From a virus, in IMG/VR virus record IMGVR_UViG_3300029226_000131, positions 1 through 6,953 of that record: 6,953 nt of DNA. One strand, given 5' to 3'. A program made the translations under genes and the position numbers. Of this stretch, positions 16-6,953 are shown one piece after another. Each line of letters starts with the position of its first letter. The first letter of the stretch is position 1. The notes under the pieces are model-generated. The model saw only the letters and a list, made by a program, of their open reading frames with translations, had not been told where the DNA came from and searched no databases.

Positions 16-44
16 AAATCGCATAATGCGGATTGATGTTAAAT
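16..44 (+). other. dif-like XerC/XerD recombination site A: AAATCGCATAA-TGCGGAT-TGATGTTAAAT, with a 7-nt central region
   Basis: Compared with E. coli dif (GGTGCGCATAA TGTATA TTATGTTAAAT), the inner XerC arm CGCATAA is identical and the XerD arm matches 10/11. A second copy lies at 6820..6848. Confidence 0.6.
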
Positions 45-585: not shown

Positions 586-1272
586 TTAAAATGCACTAAA
601 ACTTGCTAAATTATTTGCCCCGTTTGTTGTCTTAGCTTCAAGTCGGCTATCTACTTGATTATTTGCGATCTGAGCTGGTGGCGGTACATTACTAGGAGTT
701 GATTGAGGCTGCTGTTGTTGTATTTGACTAGGTGAAGTCTGTTGATTGGTTTTTGCATTGAAATAATCAAATGGTCGTCTTGAACTGTCGTGCATAAGGT
801 CCTTGCAGACTTTTTTATCAATTCCGTCAATTTTTGTTCCCTGTTGGTCATATGCTGAACATGAATTTTTCGTACAAAAACAACCGCTAAAAGTACGGCT
901 ATTGACAACATTAGGGGTAATGTTAGGTTTAAAAGCGAATGGATCTGATACTTCATAAGTAGGCTCAGAAGATGAAACAAAATCAACAACTGGAGCACTA
1001 GCAGGATTTTCATTTTGATTTTGAACTTGCGTAGGGTCTGTTGGGCTTGAAGCTGGTAATTGATTAGGATTTGATTTATCTGGTTGTTTTGATGTTGATT
1101 CATTTTTTTTAGATTCCTGAGATGTCGAAGATGCTTTATCTCCAGTAAATGTAGATACAAGTGGATTTTTACCAGTACCAGATAAAAGAAACATGGCGAT
1201 GATAAAAAATAGAACCGCAAGGACAAGACAAATAACAATTTTCTTTGGAATACGTTTTTTACGAGTATGCAT
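586..1272 (-). CDS. Possible in-frame internal restart product, analogous to pXI (residues 279-506 of pI)
   Basis: The in-frame ATG at 1272..1270 gives MHTRKKRIPKK followed by the TM helix. This mirrors the f1 pXI start (MKLTKIYLKKFSRV plus TM). No clear SD is present. Confidence 0.3.
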   Translation of the reverse strand: MHTRKKRIPKKIVICLVLAVLFFIIAMFLLSGTGKNPLVSTFTGDKASSTSQESKKNESTSKQPDKSNPNQLPASSPTDPTQVQNQNENPASAPVVDFVSSSEPTYEVSDPFAFKPNITPNVVNSRTFSGCFCTKNSCSAYDQQGTKIDGIDKKVCKDLMHDSSRRPFDYFNAKTNQQTSPSQIQQQQPQSTPSNVPPPAQIANNQVDSRLEAKTTNGANNLASFSAF

Positions 1273-2106
1273 CGTTGATGATTTATACAAGTTGTAAACG
1301 TGCTTTGGAAATCTCCAACGACTTATATTTTCAGCACGAGCAATTGATTTGATTGCATTCGGTGAATCTTGTACTACAGACCACTCCATACGCATTGATT
1401 GTTCCCAGCCAAAAATATTGACTAGATGTATATGCATACTGGCTAATTTTCTGATGTATTTATGAACAAATGATGGTTCTTGAGTGATGAATAAAAAATC
1501 ATAACCCTTATGACGATGGATTGTCAGCTCTTTAACAATCGGGTCTGCTTTAGTTGTTTCATCTGAAAAAATTGGAATTAATTGTGCTTCATCAATGACA
1601 AAATAGGAACCTTGAGGCGTCTTTCTCCAGTCGCAATCAGGTGGCAAAGGACGGCACTGGACAAGCTTTAAATCGGCAATATTGGTATAAATAGTGCGGA
1701 CAGGTTTAAAACCCTGAAACTTGGTATTTTCATTGACATTAATGTTTTCAATAATCAGATTTAATAATGAAATTCTTTCAAAATAATATGCTGGGAAGTT
1801 ATTAACAATATCGTCAGTCTGAGGATTACTAATAACATTAATAAAATATTCAGTTTTTAAGAAATCAAAAAAATCAGGTTCTAAAAATATAATTTCAGAT
1901 GTTCTTTCTAAACCTTGACCTTTAGTAACTAGTATTAAATCAAGATATTCTTGAAGTTTTAAATTAGCAATTTTCTCAAAAAAAGCTTTAGCATAATAAT
2001 AATTATGTTTTAAATTTGCGATGTTATCTCTTGATAAATCTAGCATCATTTCTGTTGCTAGTAGAGATTTCCCCGAACCCGGAGTCGCTGATAAAAAGTT
2101 AATCAT
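586..2106 (-). CDS. gI: Assembly NTPase pI (Zot family)
   Basis: N-terminal Walker A (SATPGSGKS) and Walker B-like motif (YFVIDEAQ). An NLYKSST motif precedes a basic stretch and a TM helix (KKIVICLVLAVLFFIIAMFLL), as in f1 pI. It is the last gene of the morphogenesis block, and its ATG overlaps the gVI stop (ATGA, 2103..2106). Confidence 0.93.
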   Translation of the reverse strand: MINFLSATPGSGKSLLATEMMLDLSRDNIANLKHNYYYAKAFFEKIANLKLQEYLDLILVTKGQGLERTSEIIFLEPDFFDFLKTEYFINVISNPQTDDIVNNFPAYYFERISLLNLIIENINVNENTKFQGFKPVRTIYTNIADLKLVQCRPLPPDCDWRKTPQGSYFVIDEAQLIPIFSDETTKADPIVKELTIHRHKGYDFLFITQEPSFVHKYIRKLASMHIHLVNIFGWEQSMRMEWSVVQDSPNAIKSIARAENISRWRFPKHVYNLYKSSTMHTRKKRIPKKIVICLVLAVLFFIIAMFLLSGTGKNPLVSTFTGDKASSTSQESKKNESTSKQPDKSNPNQLPASSPTDPTQVQNQNENPASAPVVDFVSSSEPTYEVSDPFAFKPNITPNVVNSRTFSGCFCTKNSCSAYDQQGTKIDGIDKKVCKDLMHDSSRRPFDYFNAKTNQQTSPSQIQQQQPQSTPSNVPPPAQIANNQVDSRLEAKTTNGANNLASFSAF

Positions 2107-2441
2107 TTCTTTCTACCCGCAACTAACGCAGGCTGTAAATCTGTTGTAAATGACCAAACTACAGCAGTTGTAATGTATCCAAAAATGATGGTTAAGCACG
2201 TATCAAATTGTGCTACACCTAGATAAGCCAAAAAATACGAGCCTACTGGGAAGCCCTCATTTGAATAATTTGCAATATTATAAAGAGCCGCTTTTGAATC
2301 AAAAATAACTTTATCTAAATAAGTGTACATTGCTAAAACTAAAGGAATAATAATAGCCATAGCCGCAGCTAGACGAACATAACTTGTTCCAGAAAATTGA
2401 GTTAATATCGTTTTTAATACTTCATATAATTTTTTAAACAT
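2103..2441 (-). CDS. gVI: Minor coat / virion-cap protein, pVI-like
   Basis: 112 aa, the same length as f1 pVI, and strongly hydrophobic with several TM segments. It lies between gIII and gI. The assignment rests on position and composition, not on recognised sequence identity. Confidence 0.7.
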   Translation of the reverse strand: MFKKLYEVLKTILTQFSGTSYVRLAAAMAIIIPLVLAMYTYLDKVIFDSKAALYNIANYSNEGFPVGSYFLAYLGVAQFDTCLTIIFGYITTAVVWSFTTDLQPALVAGRKK

Positions 2442-2445
2442 GTAA

Positions 2446-3858
2446 TCACCACTTAATTTCTTTTCTAACTACCGTTTCATATAAAATCCAAAGCCCTGTT
2501 AAATGAGCAATGAGTTGAAGCGGATAACCGAGAAACGTGAAAATCACACAAAGCCAATTTAAACTAATTGTGAAACTTCCCTTAAAATACTGAGTTTCTA
2601 ATACATATGGAACGTCTGGTGGGCATTGTTTCGAAAGTGAAAAAACAGTATCAAAAGCGCGTGAGAAAATACCTTGGTCATCAATTTCCGGTCTTTCTGG
2701 TTCTTCTTCTTTTTCTGGTTCTTCTTTAGTCCACTCTATCCATTCACATACAACACTTGCCCAATCACAAAATGCAGGTAATAGAGATTCCGATGAACCA
2801 GTACCAGTAGTTGTACTTGTAGAACCATCAGGATTTTTTGTTGTACTTGTAGAATCTGTTTTTGTATCTGTTGCAGTATTTGCAGGCGTTACATAGCCCT
2901 CAACAGTTTTGGTACCATCAGTGATTTTGTAATAACCAGGCCTTTTAGGGTCAGTCGGTTTATTTACTGAATTATCTATCGCATTTGTAATGTCTTTTGA
3001 TGCATCTTTAGCTAACTGATTACTAGCAGAATCAATAGTTTGACCGTTTGAACCATCATAAGAGTAAGCATTATTAATAATAGTATTAGATATATTATTC
3101 GTTGTATTGTTCGTTATATATTGAGTAATTTTATTCTCTAAATCAGAATTGGAAACAGGTGTTGAAGTGCTAGGATTATTAGGGTCATAATTTTGATTTT
3201 TAATTCTATTAACTGAAAACCAATCTAAGAGATAACCAGCAGAATTATATCCTATGCAATTATATCGATCAGAAGTTGAAATAGTACATGAAGGATCTTT
3301 AAGACCATTTTGAACAAAACATAATTCAAATTCTTCAATAGCATCTGCAGAATTATTAAACTTTGTAGGACTTTTACATACTGGATCACCATCAGACCAA
3401 ACATTATTAGAAACCCAATAATATTCACCTAGTGAACCGTCTTTCTTACTTACTTTACCGCCCTCATCCATTACCCATCCAACACCCTTAATTAATGCAG
3501 CAACAGCAGCAGAACCTAAGAAACTAGGTAAAGTTGCTTTACCTAGTGCTTTGGCTTTGTCGAGTCTTGAAACAATAGCTTTTGCAACACCTGATGGATT
3601 AATAGGTTTGGTAACAGAACCACCGCCCGTGACTTTACCGCCACTTGAGGCACTCATAGAAGAAGAAGCAGATTGTGTTACATTTTTACCATCATTGGCG
3701 GCTGCAATCGAGCGATCTAACATGTCGTGAGTACGCTGCATTGCATTTGCATATTCTCTGCGTGCTGCTTCTTGATTCATGTAATGTTGTTCAGGCGTAA
3801 TTGCAAGCGTTACTTGTGAAAAAAATAATAGAGAGAAAATAATAAAAATAGTTTTCAT
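2446..3858 (-). CDS. gIII: Adsorption / minor coat protein, pIII-like
   Basis: Signal peptide MKTIFIIFSLLFFSQVTLA followed by ITPEQ. Cys-containing N-terminal domains. S/T/G/N-rich linkers (for example TDTKTDSTSTTKNPDGSTSTTTGTGSSES). C-terminal hydrophobic anchor followed by RKEIKW. It lies after the gVIII terminator. Confidence 0.85.
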   Translation of the reverse strand: MKTIFIIFSLLFFSQVTLAITPEQHYMNQEAARREYANAMQRTHDMLDRSIAAANDGKNVTQSASSSMSASSGGKVTGGGSVTKPINPSGVAKAIVSRLDKAKALGKATLPSFLGSAAVAALIKGVGWVMDEGGKVSKKDGSLGEYYWVSNNVWSDGDPVCKSPTKFNNSADAIEEFELCFVQNGLKDPSCTISTSDRYNCIGYNSAGYLLDWFSVNRIKNQNYDPNNPSTSTPVSNSDLENKITQYITNNTTNNISNTIINNAYSYDGSNGQTIDSASNQLAKDASKDITNAIDNSVNKPTDPKRPGYYKITDGTKTVEGYVTPANTATDTKTDSTSTTKNPDGSTSTTTGTGSSESLLPAFCDWASVVCEWIEWTKEEPEKEEEPERPEIDDQGIFSRAFDTVFSLSKQCPPDVPYVLETQYFKGSFTISLNWLCVIFTFLGYPLQLIAHLTGLWILYETVVRKEIKW

Positions 3859-3926
3859 GGCAGTAATGCCTTAAAAATTAAATATGAAAAAAAAGAAAGT
3901 GTAATGAGAAGAATTAAATTTGACAT
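3855..3926 (-). CDS. Hypothetical 23-aa hydrophobic peptide (MSNLILLITLSFFSYLIFKALLP) immediately upstream of gIII
   Basis: Hand translation: an AGGGG SD sits 6 nt before the ATG at 3926. The stop TGA overlaps the gIII ATG (ATGA, 3855..3858). It could be a leader or coupling ORF or a tiny coat component. Confidence 0.3.
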   Translation of the reverse strand: MSNLILLITLSFFSYLIFKALLP

Positions 3927-3939
3927 GCTGAACCCCTAT

Positions 3940-3966
3940 ATAAAAAAGGGAGCGAACTCCCTTTTC
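3940..3966 (-). terminator. Rho-independent terminator after the major coat gene
   Basis: The minus-strand RNA reads AAAAGGGAG-UUCG-CUCCCUUUU followed by UUAUAU. That is a 9-bp stem, a UUCG tetraloop and a 6-U run, 8 nt after the gVIII stop. Ff phages have a terminator in the same place. Confidence 0.85.
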
Positions 3967-3973
3967 TTGGTTA

Positions 3974-4264
3974 TTAGCCAGCTCGACGAATACCGCCACG
4001 AGAGTTTGTGAAAGCAATAATTACAAGGGTGATGCCGATTGCAACAACAAAAAGCGCACCCAAGCTAGTACCGATACCACCTAAAGCGGCTTGTGCTGGG
4101 GCCAAAAAATCAGGAATAGCTGAACCTTCAGCAGCATTTGCATTTGATGCAACTAAAACACCAGTGGCAACAGCGGCAGGCGCAAGTTTTGATTTGAATT
4201 TTTGGAACCAAGTTTTTTTATGAACTTCTTGTTGTTCAATTACTTCTACGTTTTTAAAAGTCAT
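3974..4264 (-). CDS. gVIII: Major coat protein precursor, pVIII-like
   Basis: Strong SD (AGGAGA) upstream. The leader ends in SNANA, followed by AEGS. The predicted 52-aa mature protein has an acidic N-terminus (AEGSAIPDF), a hydrophobic core (GALFVVAIGITLVIIAF) and a basic C-terminus (SRGGIRRAG). Confidence 0.9.
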   Translation of the reverse strand: MTFKNVEVIEQQEVHKKTWFQKFKSKLAPAAVATGVLVASNANAAEGSAIPDFLAPAQAALGGIGTSLGALFVVAIGITLVIIAFTNSRGGIRRAG

Positions 4265-4274
4265 GAGGTTTCTC

Positions 4275-4478
4275 CTAAAGTTTGACTTTTTTTAATCCAT
4301 AAACTGACCACTTGTAAGCCAGAATCATGGTGTATATCGACCACTGAAGCCCCACAAATTTAAAAACTGATGCTAATGGTAAGTACTGTTCTAGATATTG
4401 ATCCAGATTCACTGACATGCAGTTAATACCTACCTGTTGAGCATTTTCTAAAATTTGTAGTGATTCACAAATGATCAA
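4275..4478 (-). CDS. Small membrane protein, candidate minor coat (pVII/pIX analog). The start is uncertain: TTG at 4478 gives 67 aa, ATG at 4418 gives 47 aa.
   Basis: The ORF ends inside the gVIII SD. The 47-aa version (MSVNLDQYLEQYLPLASVFKFVGLQWSIYTMILAYKWSVYGLKKVKL) has an acidic N-terminus, a hydrophobic core and a basic tail, with AGGTAGGT 9 nt upstream of its ATG. Confidence 0.55.
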   Translation of the reverse strand: MIICESLQILENAQQVGINCMSVNLDQYLEQYLPLASVFKFVGLQWSIYTMILAYKWSVYGLKKVKL

Positions 4479-4576
4479 TTTTTATTCCCCTTACATTGGT
4501 AAAAATGCAAGAAGTAGGAATTTTGATTAGGTAAGACACAACCGCATTTCTTGCATTTAATTTGTAGTTGTGTCAT
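4475..4576 (-). CDS. Doubtful 33-aa Cys-rich ORF (MTQLQIKCKKCGCVLPNQNSYFLHFYQCKGNKN)
   Basis: Hand translation: weak SD, and the stop overlaps the TTG start at 4478 (TTGA). The ORF contains an 11-bp inverted repeat, so the stretch may be structured non-coding DNA instead. Confidence 0.2.
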   Translation of the reverse strand: MTQLQIKCKKCGCVLPNQNSYFLHFYQCKGNKN

Positions 4577-4602
4577 GATTATTATTACCTAAGTTATTGA
4601 TT

Positions 4603-4630
4603 TATTTACATATTATACATTATGCGAAGT
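4603..4630 (-). other. Third dif-like site C. The minus strand reads ACTTCGCATAA-TGTATA-ATATGTAAATA.
   Basis: It contains the same 10-mer, TCGCATAATG, as sites A and B. The central region is identical to E. coli dif (TGTATA). The XerD arm is degenerate (7/11). It lies in the gap between two small ORFs. Confidence 0.45.
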
Positions 4631-4638
4631 TGGTATAA

Positions 4639-4743
4639 TTAAGGTATTGATAAGTAATGTCTTGTTTGCATTTCTGAACATTTAGCGTCAAACAATGCAA
4701 ACACACAAAGACCTAAAACCGTAATAAATACGAACTCTTTCAT
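4639..4743 (-). CDS. Hypothetical 34-aa hydrophobic protein (MKEFVFITVLGLCVFALFDAKCSEMQTRHYLSIP), pVII-position minor coat candidate
   Basis: Hand translation: the ATG overlaps the gV stop (ATGA, 4741..4744 region). Its size and hydrophobicity resemble Ff pVII (33 aa), which also directly follows gV. Confidence 0.5.
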   Translation of the reverse strand: MKEFVFITVLGLCVFALFDAKCSEMQTRHYLSIP

Positions 4744-5039
4744 CACTTAGCAACTTGCTGGTGGTTTGGTTTAACAACTGGCTTAACACTAAAAATCTGC
4801 ATCTGTGCACCAAACTTTGTTTGTGACTCTACAAATTGAATTTCGACTTCTTGGGCGTTGTCTGCACATTCAACAAGGACTGCTTGAATCTGTTCTACTG
4901 GCATAACTCCCGATCCAACGGATAAGTTATAGCGAACTGGTGAAAATACAGTTGTAGATAGATAAACCTTTTCTACACCGTCTTTCTCAGTCTTATAGGC
5001 AGTTGGTAAAATTGTGCGTGTATTGAATTGAACTTGCAT
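4743..5039 (-). CDS. gV: ssDNA-binding protein, pV-position. The likely start is ATG at 5039 (98 aa); the ORF track extends it to a TTG at 5060.
   Basis: It immediately follows gII. A GAGGAGG SD sits 9 nt before the ATG at 5039 and overlaps the gII stop (TGAGGAGG). The C-terminal segment FGAQMQIFSVKPVVK resembles f1 pV FGSLMIDRLRLVPAK. Otherwise the call is positional. Confidence 0.7.
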   Translation of the reverse strand: MQVQFNTRTILPTAYKTEKDGVEKVYLSTTVFSPVRYNLSVGSGVMPVEQIQAVLVECADNAQEVEIQFVESQTKFGAQMQIFSVKPVVKPNHQQVAK

Positions 5040-5052
5040 GGTTAAAGCCTCC

Positions 5053-5421
5053 TCAGGCAACTAAATGTAAACGCTGTTTAGGCGTGTATTGTGAAACTGG
5101 TAATTGATAATCTTGTGGTAATTGATCGCACATCTTGAGTTCAAACATGCGTACAAATGGAATGACCTTACCGTTTGGATTCTTAGCAAGGTTTTGTAAG
5201 TGTGATTTGCTAATTTCGCATTCTAAAAGCGAGTTGATGCACTTATGAAATTGAGCTTTGCTATAAATTTTTTGAGTAGCTTGTAAACCCATTTGACGTA
5301 CTAATGAGTAAAATTTCATAGCGTTCATTGCTTTGATATAACTGGGCTTACCAGTCTTTGTATATGTAACCAACTTAGATTTAAGTAAATCTAAGATTTC
5401 TCCATCTGATGAAAAATTCAT
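5053..5421 (-). CDS. gX: Nested in-frame gX-like product (C-terminal 122 aa of pII)
   Basis: The in-frame ATG at 5421 is preceded by AAGGG 7 nt upstream. MNFSSDGEILDLLKSK aligns with the f1 pX start MNIYDDSAVLDAIQSK (remembered sequence). Confidence 0.5.
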   Translation of the reverse strand: MNFSSDGEILDLLKSKLVTYTKTGKPSYIKAMNAMKFYSLVRQMGLQATQKIYSKAQFHKCINSLLECEISKSHLQNLAKNPNGKVIPFVRMFELKMCDQLPQDYQLPVSQYTPKQRLHLVA

Positions 5422-6276
5422 ATATTTACCCTTCATTGTGTCTAAGATCGGGTCGAAAGCTACGTGCCAGAGGCGTAGCAATAATTCTGGCTGTTCATGT
5501 TGAAGCTTTATTAGCTCAAATAAATTTGTCGGATAACCGTTTTTGGTCATGTATGTTTTACATATACGAGCTTCTAAACGAAGAACTGCATTAGCAAACG
5601 GTAAGGCATCATGCATTGCAAAAACTAAGGCTTTAGAGCGTTGACAGCCCTTGTCTGCTTGTTTCTGAATCTTGTTAAGTTGGCTTTTTACTTCTTCGAA
5701 TTTGCCGTAAGCCTTTGGACGAACACTGGCACCGTCATTACCCCAAGTAATATAGTTTTCATATTTGATTTGACGGGCTTTACGGTGTCCAGATGCAAGA
5801 TTTGCCATGTAATCCAAAACAGGTTGAACCATGTTCTGATGAGGCAATCTAAATAAGTAAGTCGTATCAAGGTGCAATACTTCGGTTTTTTCAAAATCTA
5901 AAATTGGAACCAAATTAGGAAATGCTTCAATCAACATGCCAAGCATTTGATCTGCACCTAATTCAATAGATTCAAAACCATATACGTTGTGACCTTGAAG
6001 CAATTTAAGCGGTGATGCTTTGATTTCAACATAAGGCGGTGTATTCATCGTATTTGTATAGAACTTCATAGCCATATCAGTAAAGTCTGAGGCTAATGAC
6101 TCATAAGGATGATACAAATCCCCTGTTATTGTCTGACCATCATCTGACTTACTTACATGGCGTGTAGCTGCAGGAATTCCATAGTCGCGAATATCACCAT
6201 TAAACCAATGGTGATTATCAAGACTGCGAACAAACGCAATATTGATTGGAATCGCTAAACGGAGAAAATCGAGCAT
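5053..6276 (-). CDS. gII: Rolling-circle replication initiator / nickase, Ff gene II family
   Basis: Several blocks match remembered f1 pII. MLDFLRLAIP matches MIDMLVLRLPF. HPYESLAS matches HPFESLPT. VEIKASPLKLLQGHNVYG matches VEIKASPAKVLQGHNVFG. LRLEARICKTYM..NLFELI matches VRFEARIKTRYL..NLFDAI. ECEISKSHLQNL..VIPFVRM matches ECGIPKSQLMNL..VVPLVRF. Confidence 0.93.
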   Translation of the reverse strand: MLDFLRLAIPINIAFVRSLDNHHWFNGDIRDYGIPAATRHVSKSDDGQTITGDLYHPYESLASDFTDMAMKFYTNTMNTPPYVEIKASPLKLLQGHNVYGFESIELGADQMLGMLIEAFPNLVPILDFEKTEVLHLDTTYLFRLPHQNMVQPVLDYMANLASGHRKARQIKYENYITWGNDGASVRPKAYGKFEEVKSQLNKIQKQADKGCQRSKALVFAMHDALPFANAVLRLEARICKTYMTKNGYPTNLFELIKLQHEQPELLLRLWHVAFDPILDTMKGKYMNFSSDGEILDLLKSKLVTYTKTGKPSYIKAMNAMKFYSLVRQMGLQATQKIYSKAQFHKCINSLLECEISKSHLQNLAKNPNGKVIPFVRMFELKMCDQLPQDYQLPVSQYTPKQRLHLVA

Positions 6277-6390
6277 ATGAAATCACAAATTCATAAATCA
6301 CTTTTAACACATAAAAACATAAATCACATATGAATTCAATCACAAATCACAAATTCATTTAGAATTAAGTGATTTTAAAAGGATTATCAA
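6277..6390. promoter_or_regulatory. Divergent control region between gII and the RHH regulator. It carries six AATCAC[A/T] heptads and a 15-bp direct repeat.
   Basis: Direct heptads lie at 6281..6287, 6296..6302, 6322..6328, 6338..6344 and 6345..6351 (the last two are contiguous). One inverted heptad lies at 6368..6374. AAATCACAAATTCAT occurs at 6280..6294 and 6344..6358. A possible plus-strand -10 TAGAAT lies at 6360..6365, and SD AAGGA at 6379..6383. Confidence 0.7.
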
Positions 6391-6594: not shown

Positions 6595-6710
6595 AATTAG
6601 TGATCAATATTTAATCGAAATAGTGGTTAAATAAGAAACATTCTCAATAACTCTGAAAGCTCCGTTATATATAGCTCACAGCAGGAATTGAAAAAAACTT
6701 TCGAGACTCA

Positions 6711-6736
6711 GGCACACTATTAGATAGCAGTGTGCC
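6711..6736 (-). other. Candidate plus-strand replication origin hairpin with an Ff-like nick motif
   Basis: The minus strand reads GGCACACT-GCTATCTAAT-AGTGTGCC, an 8-bp stem with a 10-nt loop. TAATAGTG spans the loop and 3' arm exactly as in f1 ori (GAGTCCAC-GTTCTTTAATA-GTGGACTC, nicked before AATAGTGG). Confidence 0.5.
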
Positions 6737-6749
6737 CTATCTCAAATCT

Positions 6750-6818
6750 GGTTCTGTTCTGCTCGGTCGGGCGGTCGAACGTCCCTCCTCCCTTCCTTGG
6801 TCGCAGACAGAACAGACC
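6750..6818. repeat. Imperfect 11-bp inverted repeat enclosing a 46-nt GC-rich loop that has its own hairpin. Candidate packaging signal or minus-strand origin.
   Basis: CTGTTCTG (6754..6761) pairs with CAGAACAG (6808..6815), and flanking pairs extend the stem. Bases 6761..6804 are 31/44 G+C. An inner hairpin spans 6769..6785 (GGGCG-GTCGAA-CGtCCC). CGGTCG occurs twice. A 17-nt homopyrimidine run lies at 6782..6798. Confidence 0.5.
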
Positions 6819-6953
6819 GAAATCGCATAATGCGGATTGATGTTAAATGTACTGCATCCTCGAAAACGAAAATGACATTTTCTGGTTGGGAAAATGCCAT
6901 TTTAAAAAGTTGCAGTGCAAGTAACATAATCACGCAGTTACATTATGCGAAAT
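6805..6953. repeat. Copy 2 of the exact 149-bp direct repeat. It carries second copies of dif-like sites A (6820..6848) and B (6919..6953) and of the twin palindromes (6868..6904).
   Basis: Identical to 1..149. Confidence 0.97.

Follow-up and report, generated by a model that had tools for sequence, protein, structure and literature searches.

The window, i.e. the whole stretch of 6,953 nucleotides that forms IMG/VR record IMGVR_UViG_3300029226_000131, is the genome of an Acinetobacter inovirus (filamentous phage). It carries an inverted pair of dif-like sites, A and B, which constitute a hairpin phage attachment site (attP), and a third dif-like site, here called site C. According to our analysis, site C is probably a working double-stranded XerC/XerD site, a near-copy of dif that recombines after the phage has entered through the hairpin. 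Xer-exploiting phages are currently classed as CTX, VGJ or TLC, and each of these three types has one kind of attachment site. Here one phage lineage joins a CTX-type hairpin with a separate dif-centred site, and the comparative record indicates that both have been used. Conservation of site C, recombinant junctions inside it and targets with other centres, which act as a natural control, together argue for an active, centre-dependent Xer site that recombines with dif.

An earlier note on this DNA had described a third related dif-like site with a canonical TGTATA centre, and the minus-strand sequence from 4630 to 4603 bears this out. The same centre occurs in the dif of ADP1, GATTCGTATAA TGTATA TTATGTTAAAT (PMC2731167), and of Acinetobacter baumannii, TGTTCGTATAA TGTATA TTATGTTAAAT (PMC10132070). 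The XerC arm fits the host consensus nnTTCGYATAA, and ACTTCGCATAA is tabulated as the XerC arm of one Acinetobacter chromosomal dif, that of CP026616 (PMC10132070). Among 107 unique sites this arm occurs in 16 variants, all of which keep CGYATAA. The XerD arm is degenerate. It matches TTATGTTAAAT at 7/11 positions, or at 10/11 after insertion of a single T, just as had been noted, and the indel is a real polymorphism: the commonest arm among relatives, ATATGTTAAAA (9/11), is found in 45/107 sites and ATATGTAAATA in 40/107. The innermost base of the arm (base 1) is A instead of T in about 98% of the sites, with L056 as the exception (L numbers designate the loci and contigs compared), and this T-to-A change creates the hexamer TATAAT.

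Within the genome, site C is related to sites A and B. The 10-mer TCGCATAATG occurs at 19-28 (plus strand), 137-146 and 4618-4627 (both minus strand), which gives the three copies per unit reported before, against 0.03 expected by chance. Further copies at 6823-6832 and 6941-6950 belong only to the overlap repeat of the first 149 bases; window bases 1-149 equal 6805-6953, so that the window represents a circular genome of 6804 bp written with an overlap. Sites C and B share a match of 13 bases (TACATTATGCGAA). The distances to the A/B pair, 2186 nt one way and 4453 nt the other, agree with those given earlier. The description of the site as buried in the structural gene module does not hold, as it lies in the 62-nt gap between the stop codon of orf35 (4639) and the ATG of orf33 (4576), which is the boundary between the replication and morphogenesis modules.

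Relatives were retrieved by the pII protein alone, so the set is unbiased for site C. All of them are from Acinetobacter. In 52/52 evaluable copies of the replication module a site was found 250-700 nt after pII, consisting of 33 intact C sites, 13 hybrids of the left part of C with dif (C-left/dif) and six hybrids of the left part of C with the central and right part of B (C-left/B-rest). Neither the lack of conservation nor the absence from close relatives that the earlier note had considered was observed. The 20-base core TCGYATAATGTATAATATGT is present in at least 119 IMG/VR contigs. In the alignment the flanks and neighbouring genes diverge around an 18-nt core that hardly varies, and the median amino-acid identity to the window is 77% for pII and 27% for Zot. 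A megablast search of the whole genome against deposited phages returned a single match, 59 bases that span site C in Acinetobacter phage M02 and occupy the equivalent position between a pV-like gene and a small Cys-rich open reading frame (ORF). Site C is preceded by at least three kinds of upstream module and is a conserved joint where modules reassort.

TGTATA is kept in all relatives but one, L002, where the centre is TATAGA. In L002/L011 (906, 1060, 3125) all three centres have TA in place of the initial TG (C TATAGA, B TATGAT, A TACGGA), which may reflect co-variation with an unusual host dif. The site C block is also carried by three Acinetobacter records filed as plasmids, NZ_CP156799.1 (6373 bp), NZ_CP051873.1 (6619 bp) and NC_025170.1 (6977 bp), which, judged by their size, are probably inovirus replicative forms. 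In L059 a segment of about 2.6 kb (709-3372), inserted at site C, separates pV from the structural genes. Its start is a hairpin-site right half, and at its end its own left flank is joined to C-right; the same left flank was seen in L066, L087, L100 and L121.

We give almost no credence to the view that site C is an inert scar, i.e. an old captured hybrid att site, or a coincidence in AT-rich DNA, and in either case inactive now. A good XerC arm, a dif centre and an off-consensus XerD arm are what an old attL would be expected to look like, but the chance expectation of 0.03 is low, the core remains invariant between modules that are down to about 27% amino-acid identity, and recombinant junctions have formed repeatedly and independently in several species.

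These junctions were analysed in loci with host DNA on both sides of the array. At 17 right ends, the pV-side flank of the phage (C-left) is followed by the XerC arm, TGTATA, TTATGTTAAAT and then non-phage DNA (C-left/dif; L001, L003, L004, L005, L006, L007, L009, L016, L017, L020, L025, L032, L035, L039, L044, L077 and L164). Several of the right host flanks match the published right flank of A. baumannii dif, aaaagatttg (PMC10132070). In L003, L017, L032 and M02 the terminal hybrid agrees fully with the intact C to the end of the centre and departs from it at XerD-arm base 1; the crossover switch point lies between the XerC arm and that base. The six C-left/B-rest copies of the pII-retrieved set were found in L019, L033, L039 (twice), L042 and L059, and one of them is part of a replication-only array. 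A search of prophage junctions at this site, as the earlier note had proposed, therefore does find copies that recombined inside it. Among the reactions suggested there, XerCD-mediated deletion agrees with these junctions, whereas inversion does not: neither C-left/A-type products nor an inverted arrangement were found in any locus, and C and B share one orientation and the A sites the other.

The record of phage M02 (L001; OQ693633.1, "Acinetobacter phage M02, complete genome", marked circular) deserves a closer description. Its bases 1-127 repeat 5817-5943, which hold the end of the pV-like gene and the left half of C. Bases 5955-6243 follow a C-left/dif hybrid, and their start closely resembles the A. 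baumannii chromosomal flank at the junction in L025, L032, L039 and L051. The record appears to be an excerpt of a prophage array that includes host DNA. A chromosomal origin of the left flank of its site C (aactatataac) was considered and rejected; this flank represents the 3' end of the pV-like phage gene, which the record contains twice. The phage C-left flanks aactatataac and aactatatag (L001, L084, L165) resemble the left flank actatataat published for A. baumannii, whose XerC arm TGTTCGTATAA is also that of site C in A. baumannii-type phages. Judged by this likeness, the XerC half of the reference A. baumannii dif may itself be phage-derived.

L174 and L175 are short metagenome contigs from different samples that terminate at the same base inside site C. 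They were considered as a fork between C-right and dif-right, which was rejected, as both stop after TGTATAAT, already belong to C-right and are uninformative; their ends suggest an assembly fork among C-right variants linked to one replication module. In L004 another element of about 1.8 kb (8664-10510), starting with agcatatccaagactgtrgcc, lies between the C-left/dif hybrid and the true chromosomal flank. It terminates in ATGTCGCATAA CGTAAT(T) TTATGTTAAAT, from which its crossover seems to have been on the XerD side. The left end of this element also occurs in L007, L009, L035, L044 and L047, and in L035 and L044 oppositely oriented Zot and pIII genes come next. Pfam searches of the 1.8-kb element to the right of several junctions returned nothing useful.

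Targets with a centre other than TGTATA serve as a natural control. They comprise plasmid pC9_1 (TAGAGA; L165, a tandem dimer), plasmid pmZS (TGCCCA; L166, a single copy) and L080 (TAGAGA). In all three the right end is at B-left, C is intact and the structural genes are retained. At targets with TGTATA, by comparison, 17/19 ends are at C-left and only 2/19 at B-left (L051, L163; Fisher p = 0.0065 for B-left ends, hand-computed on phylogenetically non-independent loci). It is the hallmark of a complete tyrosine-recombinase exchange that it depends on the identity of the centre. Insertion at B tolerates any centre, as would be expected of a one-strand XerC exchange that is resolved by replication.

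Primary entry of the phage is of the CTX type and takes place at B, because the left junctions are at B and the A/B region folds into a hairpin. As single-stranded DNA, region 5-160 is predicted to form a forked hairpin of -31.3 kcal/mol, compared with -13.5 for shuffled sequences (z = -6.6), with paired XerC and XerD arms and a bulged centre. Left ends read host flank, XerC arm and then the central and right part of site B, with junctions at 2219 in L003, 6414 in L004, 9191 in L005 and 1163 in L045. All observed left ends, namely those of L003, L004, L005, L045, L165, L166 and L167, are of this chromosome- or plasmid-left/B-rest form. The left flank of L045, actatataat TGTTCGTATAA, is the published left flank of A. 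baumannii dif (PMC10132070), and the left flanks of L003 and L004 represent homologous chromosome as far as the site B junction. The window's own phage is found at 100% identity in L167, a 39-kb metagenome contig. There, the chromosomal flank on the LysR side meets B-rest at 7347; site C at 9638 is intact, as is a second B at 14119.

The common array consists of a replication module, C, a structural module, B, A, a second replication module and C-left/dif (L003, L017, L032, M02, L164), with 99.8% identity between the two replication modules. In chromosomal arrays the final unit lacks the morphogenesis module. Replication-only elements of about 2.2-2.8 kb, which comprise B-rest, A, the repressor region, pII, pV and C-left, stand alone beside dif in L004 and L005, take part in a more complex arrangement in L007, and in L039 form an array joined by C-left/B-rest hybrids. 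L042, from an isolate genome, is a replication-only unit of 2771 bp with a terminal repeat of 375 nt, self-joined through a C-left/B-rest hybrid as a circle or tandem, and may be a free RS1-like mini-replicon.

We posit that these structures would form as follows. For the first entry, the A/B hairpin would fold and XerC would swap one strand at B, as in CTX-phi, which would regenerate a complete dif at the right end of the prophage. C would then be a direct repeat with the regenerated dif, about 4.5 kb away. Because the two would share the same XerC-arm type and the whole TGTATA centre, an ordinary two-strand XerCD exchange between C and dif would be possible. In the forward direction it would remove the C-to-B segment (coat, pIII, pVI, Zot) and leave a replication-only element ending in C-left/dif; in the reverse direction it would insert this segment. 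Within arrays, exchange of an internal C with the terminal C-left/dif, or of C with C, would release or re-insert a complete circular genome. This would yield RS1-like replication-only elements as well as arrays whose last unit is a replication module, and it would provide a fixed crossover at which replication modules are recombined with morphogenesis modules; C-left/B-rest hybrids would be the product of hairpin insertion into a C-left/dif site. Hairpin insertion and C-dif recombination suffice to derive all observed structures. What the data show is that the site is conserved, where the junctions lie and that the ends depend on the identity of the centre; we infer XerC and XerD as the enzymes, along with the direction of the reaction, the order of strand exchange and a benefit to the phage, and we suppose that the T-to-A change in the XerD arm slows the loss of the structural module.

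Alternatively, site C might act as a reversible attP, through which the replicative form integrates at dif and excises again like VGJ-phi or TLC-phi, with the replication-only remnants as by-products. Such a reversible lysogeny would either supplement the irreversible hairpin route or replace it. The dif-identical centre next to a degenerate XerD arm is the TLC-phi layout, the common arrays hold a full genome between C and C-left/dif as an excisable unit, and the small circular records of 6.4-7.0 kb that carry the block indicate that replicative forms exist. Moreover, lysogens from direct integration at C would be reversible and therefore rare, i.e. under-represented, in genome sequences. However, the left ends observed are all at B, and the junction that alternative integration, as envisaged by the earlier note, would leave (chromosome-left/C-right, a VGJ-type attL) was found neither at the observed left ends, nor in genome loci, nor among 112 unique C sites in a core-motif scan. 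Pfam scans of the 10 window ORFs, which covered homologues only, gave no match to XafT/DUF3653, the Xer activation factor of TLC-phi, and the 99.8%-identical replication modules of L003 and L017 also fit tandem insertion followed by deletion. We therefore consider a reversible attP possible but rather unlikely as the main function of site C.

The consensus sequence of integration host factor (IHF) is WATCAANNNNTTR. It is matched three times in the whole window, and two of the matches flank site C on the same strand (Table 1). Both motifs keep fixed offsets and none is on the opposite strand in the 107 sites; the right motif, at +27 to +29, is exact in 101/107 and the left one in 70/107, with at most one mismatch in 89/107. 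The left motif overlaps the stop codon of the preceding ORF, which is pV in most relatives and orf35 in the window, and since these ORFs differ, the conservation is at the DNA level. The motifs are candidate IHF sites, and IHF may have an accessory role at site C. We know of no report in which IHF serves a phage att site as Xer accessory factor, and no paper came up in a full-text search for literature combining IHF, XerC, filamentous phage, attP and dif.

Such motifs would also suit a site that resolves dimers of the replicative form like cer/psi, with the IHF-type sequences as accessory elements and recombination with dif as a side effect. A double-stranded Xer site on a small multicopy circle, the fixed distances of the conserved flanking motifs and the presence of the site on plasmid-like records fit this explanation. 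Plasmid resolution sites, on the other hand, normally avoid the dif centre, which is kept here in nearly all copies, and the placement at a module boundary would be left unexplained. No accessory region of the PepA/ArgR/ArcA type turned up, although no search for one was made. We judge multimer resolution improbable as the role of the site.

The earlier note had further proposed that the TATAAT within the site doubles as a late promoter. This was not supported, as the hexamer has no -35 partner at proper spacing on the strand of the site, and a consensus scan for sigma-70 -35/-10 pairs 16-18 nt apart found none on the minus strand between 4200 and 5100. It is very unlikely that the site is solely regulatory, in the sense that TATAAT and the IHF-type motifs drive the morphogenesis operon and the likeness to dif is incidental. 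TATAAT does precede the orf33 ATG by 35 nt, conservation of the block extends across the orf33 leader and first codons, and the T-to-A change is almost universal. Yet besides the missing -35 hexamer, an intact XerC arm and a dif centre are not needed by a promoter, L056 keeps the site without TATAAT, and the recombinant junctions inside the site would find no explanation. A secondary, -10-only promoter role of site C is possible.

With respect to the preferred reading of site C as a working XerC/XerD site, the flanking motifs lead to a more tentative proposal, to which we attach considerably less confidence. Site C and the two IHF-type motifs might form an attP-like assembly on which host XerCD acts without FtsK, a reversible double-stranded exit site beside the irreversible single-stranded hairpin entry, which would spawn replication-only satellites and let phages swap their replication and morphogenesis modules.

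Several observations weigh against site C as a working recombination site. The junction counts come from contigs that are phylogenetically non-independent, and homologous recombination over the approximately 17-23 shared bases is a conceivable alternative, as it would likewise depend on centre identity. The XerD arm is weak, and its innermost base is A, while in TLC-phi a T at this position is important for FtsK-driven recombination (PMC9226527). What the phage would gain from losing its own structural genes is not obvious, and selection may have favoured the reverse reaction or another function. Finally, the first unit of L016 (1887-2613) has an A/B-type hairpin, a distant pII (36% identity) and a pV-like gene that leads straight into the Cys-rich ORF without site C. 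Site C is thus not essential to this lifestyle and not universal among hairpin-bearing Acinetobacter inoviruses.

Compared with known Xer systems, the A/B pair resembles CTX-phi attP(+) of V. cholerae, in which two inverted dif-like sites about 100 nt apart fold on the (+) strand and XerC exchange joins one site to the chromosome, with the junction at the boundary of XerC arm and centre. As in the arrays described here, a replication-only element follows the CTX-phi/RS1 prophage. CTX-phi has no third, dif-identical double-stranded site, however, and RS1 is a separate satellite with its own hairpin ends, not a product of internal Xer-site recombination, as we propose for the elements found here. 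Site C itself is closest to TLC-phi attP. Both are double-stranded with a good XerC arm, a dif-identical centre and a degenerate XerD arm, and in both recombination with dif regenerates a perfect dif. They differ in that site C keeps G at the fifth base of the XerD arm and has A at the first, coexists with a hairpin attP and was not seen as primary integration site.

VGJ-phi attP is likewise a dif-like site on the replicative form of an inovirus and, with neighbouring elements, gives rise to the excision of hybrid molecules. In contrast to site C, it is described as 29 bp long, lacks dif1 homology where its centre adjoins the XerD arm and consequently uses XerC only; it is also the sole attP of its phage, whereas site C has the full 6-bp dif centre and lies beside a hairpin attP. 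The pdif modules of Acinetobacter plasmids have in common with our system the host genus, the Xer arms and the reassortment of Xer-bounded gene modules between replicons. Their sites are oppositely oriented (C/D and D/C) and usually have non-dif centres, while C and B are direct in every locus. In lambda attP and the cer/psi regions, a recombinase core is flanked at fixed distances by sequences matching the consensus of architectural proteins, a layout which site C shares at the level of sequence only; those systems use Int, or PepA with ArgR or ArcA. No prior description of a phage with both types of site was found in the literature on Acinetobacter inovirus dif sites and phage M02.

Site C offers a concrete origin for RS1-like replication-only elements, and in lysogens it implies a phage origin for the XerC half of the chromosomal dif. 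At least one "complete phage genome" in GenBank appears to be a prophage excerpt with host DNA. If the two-site reading is true, the system would be a phage counterpart of the pdif modules within an entire lineage of Acinetobacter inoviruses. The predictions are directly testable in a priority pathogen, because XerC and XerD of A. baumannii have already been purified (PMC11705084) and in vivo assays exist (PMC11705084, PMC7399989).

Table 1. Location of site C, the hairpin sites, the flanking motifs and the genes in the window.
Feature	Position	Strand	Sequence or description
Site C, dif-like core (28 bases)	4603-4630	minus	ACTTCGCATAA TGTATA ATATGTAAATA
Site C, XerC arm	4630-4620	minus	ACTTCGCATAA
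Site C, centre	4619-4614	minus	TGTATA
Site C, XerD arm	4613-4603	minus	ATATGTAAATA; degenerate
Right flanking motif	4590-4602	minus	AATCAATAACTTA; exact match to IHF consensus; abuts XerD arm; in orf33 leader
Left flanking motif	4640-4652	minus	TATCAATACCTTA; exact match to IHF consensus; ends 9 nt upstream of XerC arm
Site B, hairpin attP arm	117-149, repeated 6921-6953	minus	ATTTCGCATAA TGTAAC TGCGTGATTATGTTAC
Site A, inverted partner of B	16-43, repeated 6820-6847	plus	AAATCGCATAA TGCGGA TTGATGTTAAA
Replication module, upstream of C	4639-6276	minus	pII, pV-like ORF, orf35
pII	6276-5053	minus	Phage_CRI and G2P_X_C domains
pV-like ORF	5060-4743	minus	
orf35	4746-4639	minus	ends the replication block, after pII and pV; stop codon at 4639
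Morphogenesis module, downstream of C	586-4576	minus	orf33, orf67, coat, pIII-like, pVI-like, Zot/pI
orf33	4576-4475	minus	first ORF of morphogenesis block; ATG at 4576; Cys-rich
orf67		minus	in morphogenesis module, listed between orf33 and coat protein
Coat protein	4264-3974	minus	
pIII-like	3858-2446	minus	
pVI-like	2441-2103	minus	
Zot/pI	2106-586	minus	

Nearly all genes of the window are on the minus strand, with a small repressor-like ORF on the plus strand. The orf33 peptide has 33 residues, is Cys-rich (KCKKCG...YQCKG) and has no Pfam match. Its gene starts 26 nt past the 28-base core of site C and 13 nt past the right flanking motif, and the first codons are kept even where the remaining structural module diverges. 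Between the divergent pII and repressor-like genes (6280-6358), direct repeats of AAATCACAAATTCAT at 6280 and 6344, together with related 18-mers, look like operator or iteron repeats, judging by their arrangement. In the integrated copy of the window phage in L167, which is otherwise 100% identical, 32 bases of the window (6683-6714) are absent. A GC-rich stretch, gctcggtcgggcggtcgaacgtccctcctccc (6750-6810), which is unusual in this AT-rich genome, adjoins site A.

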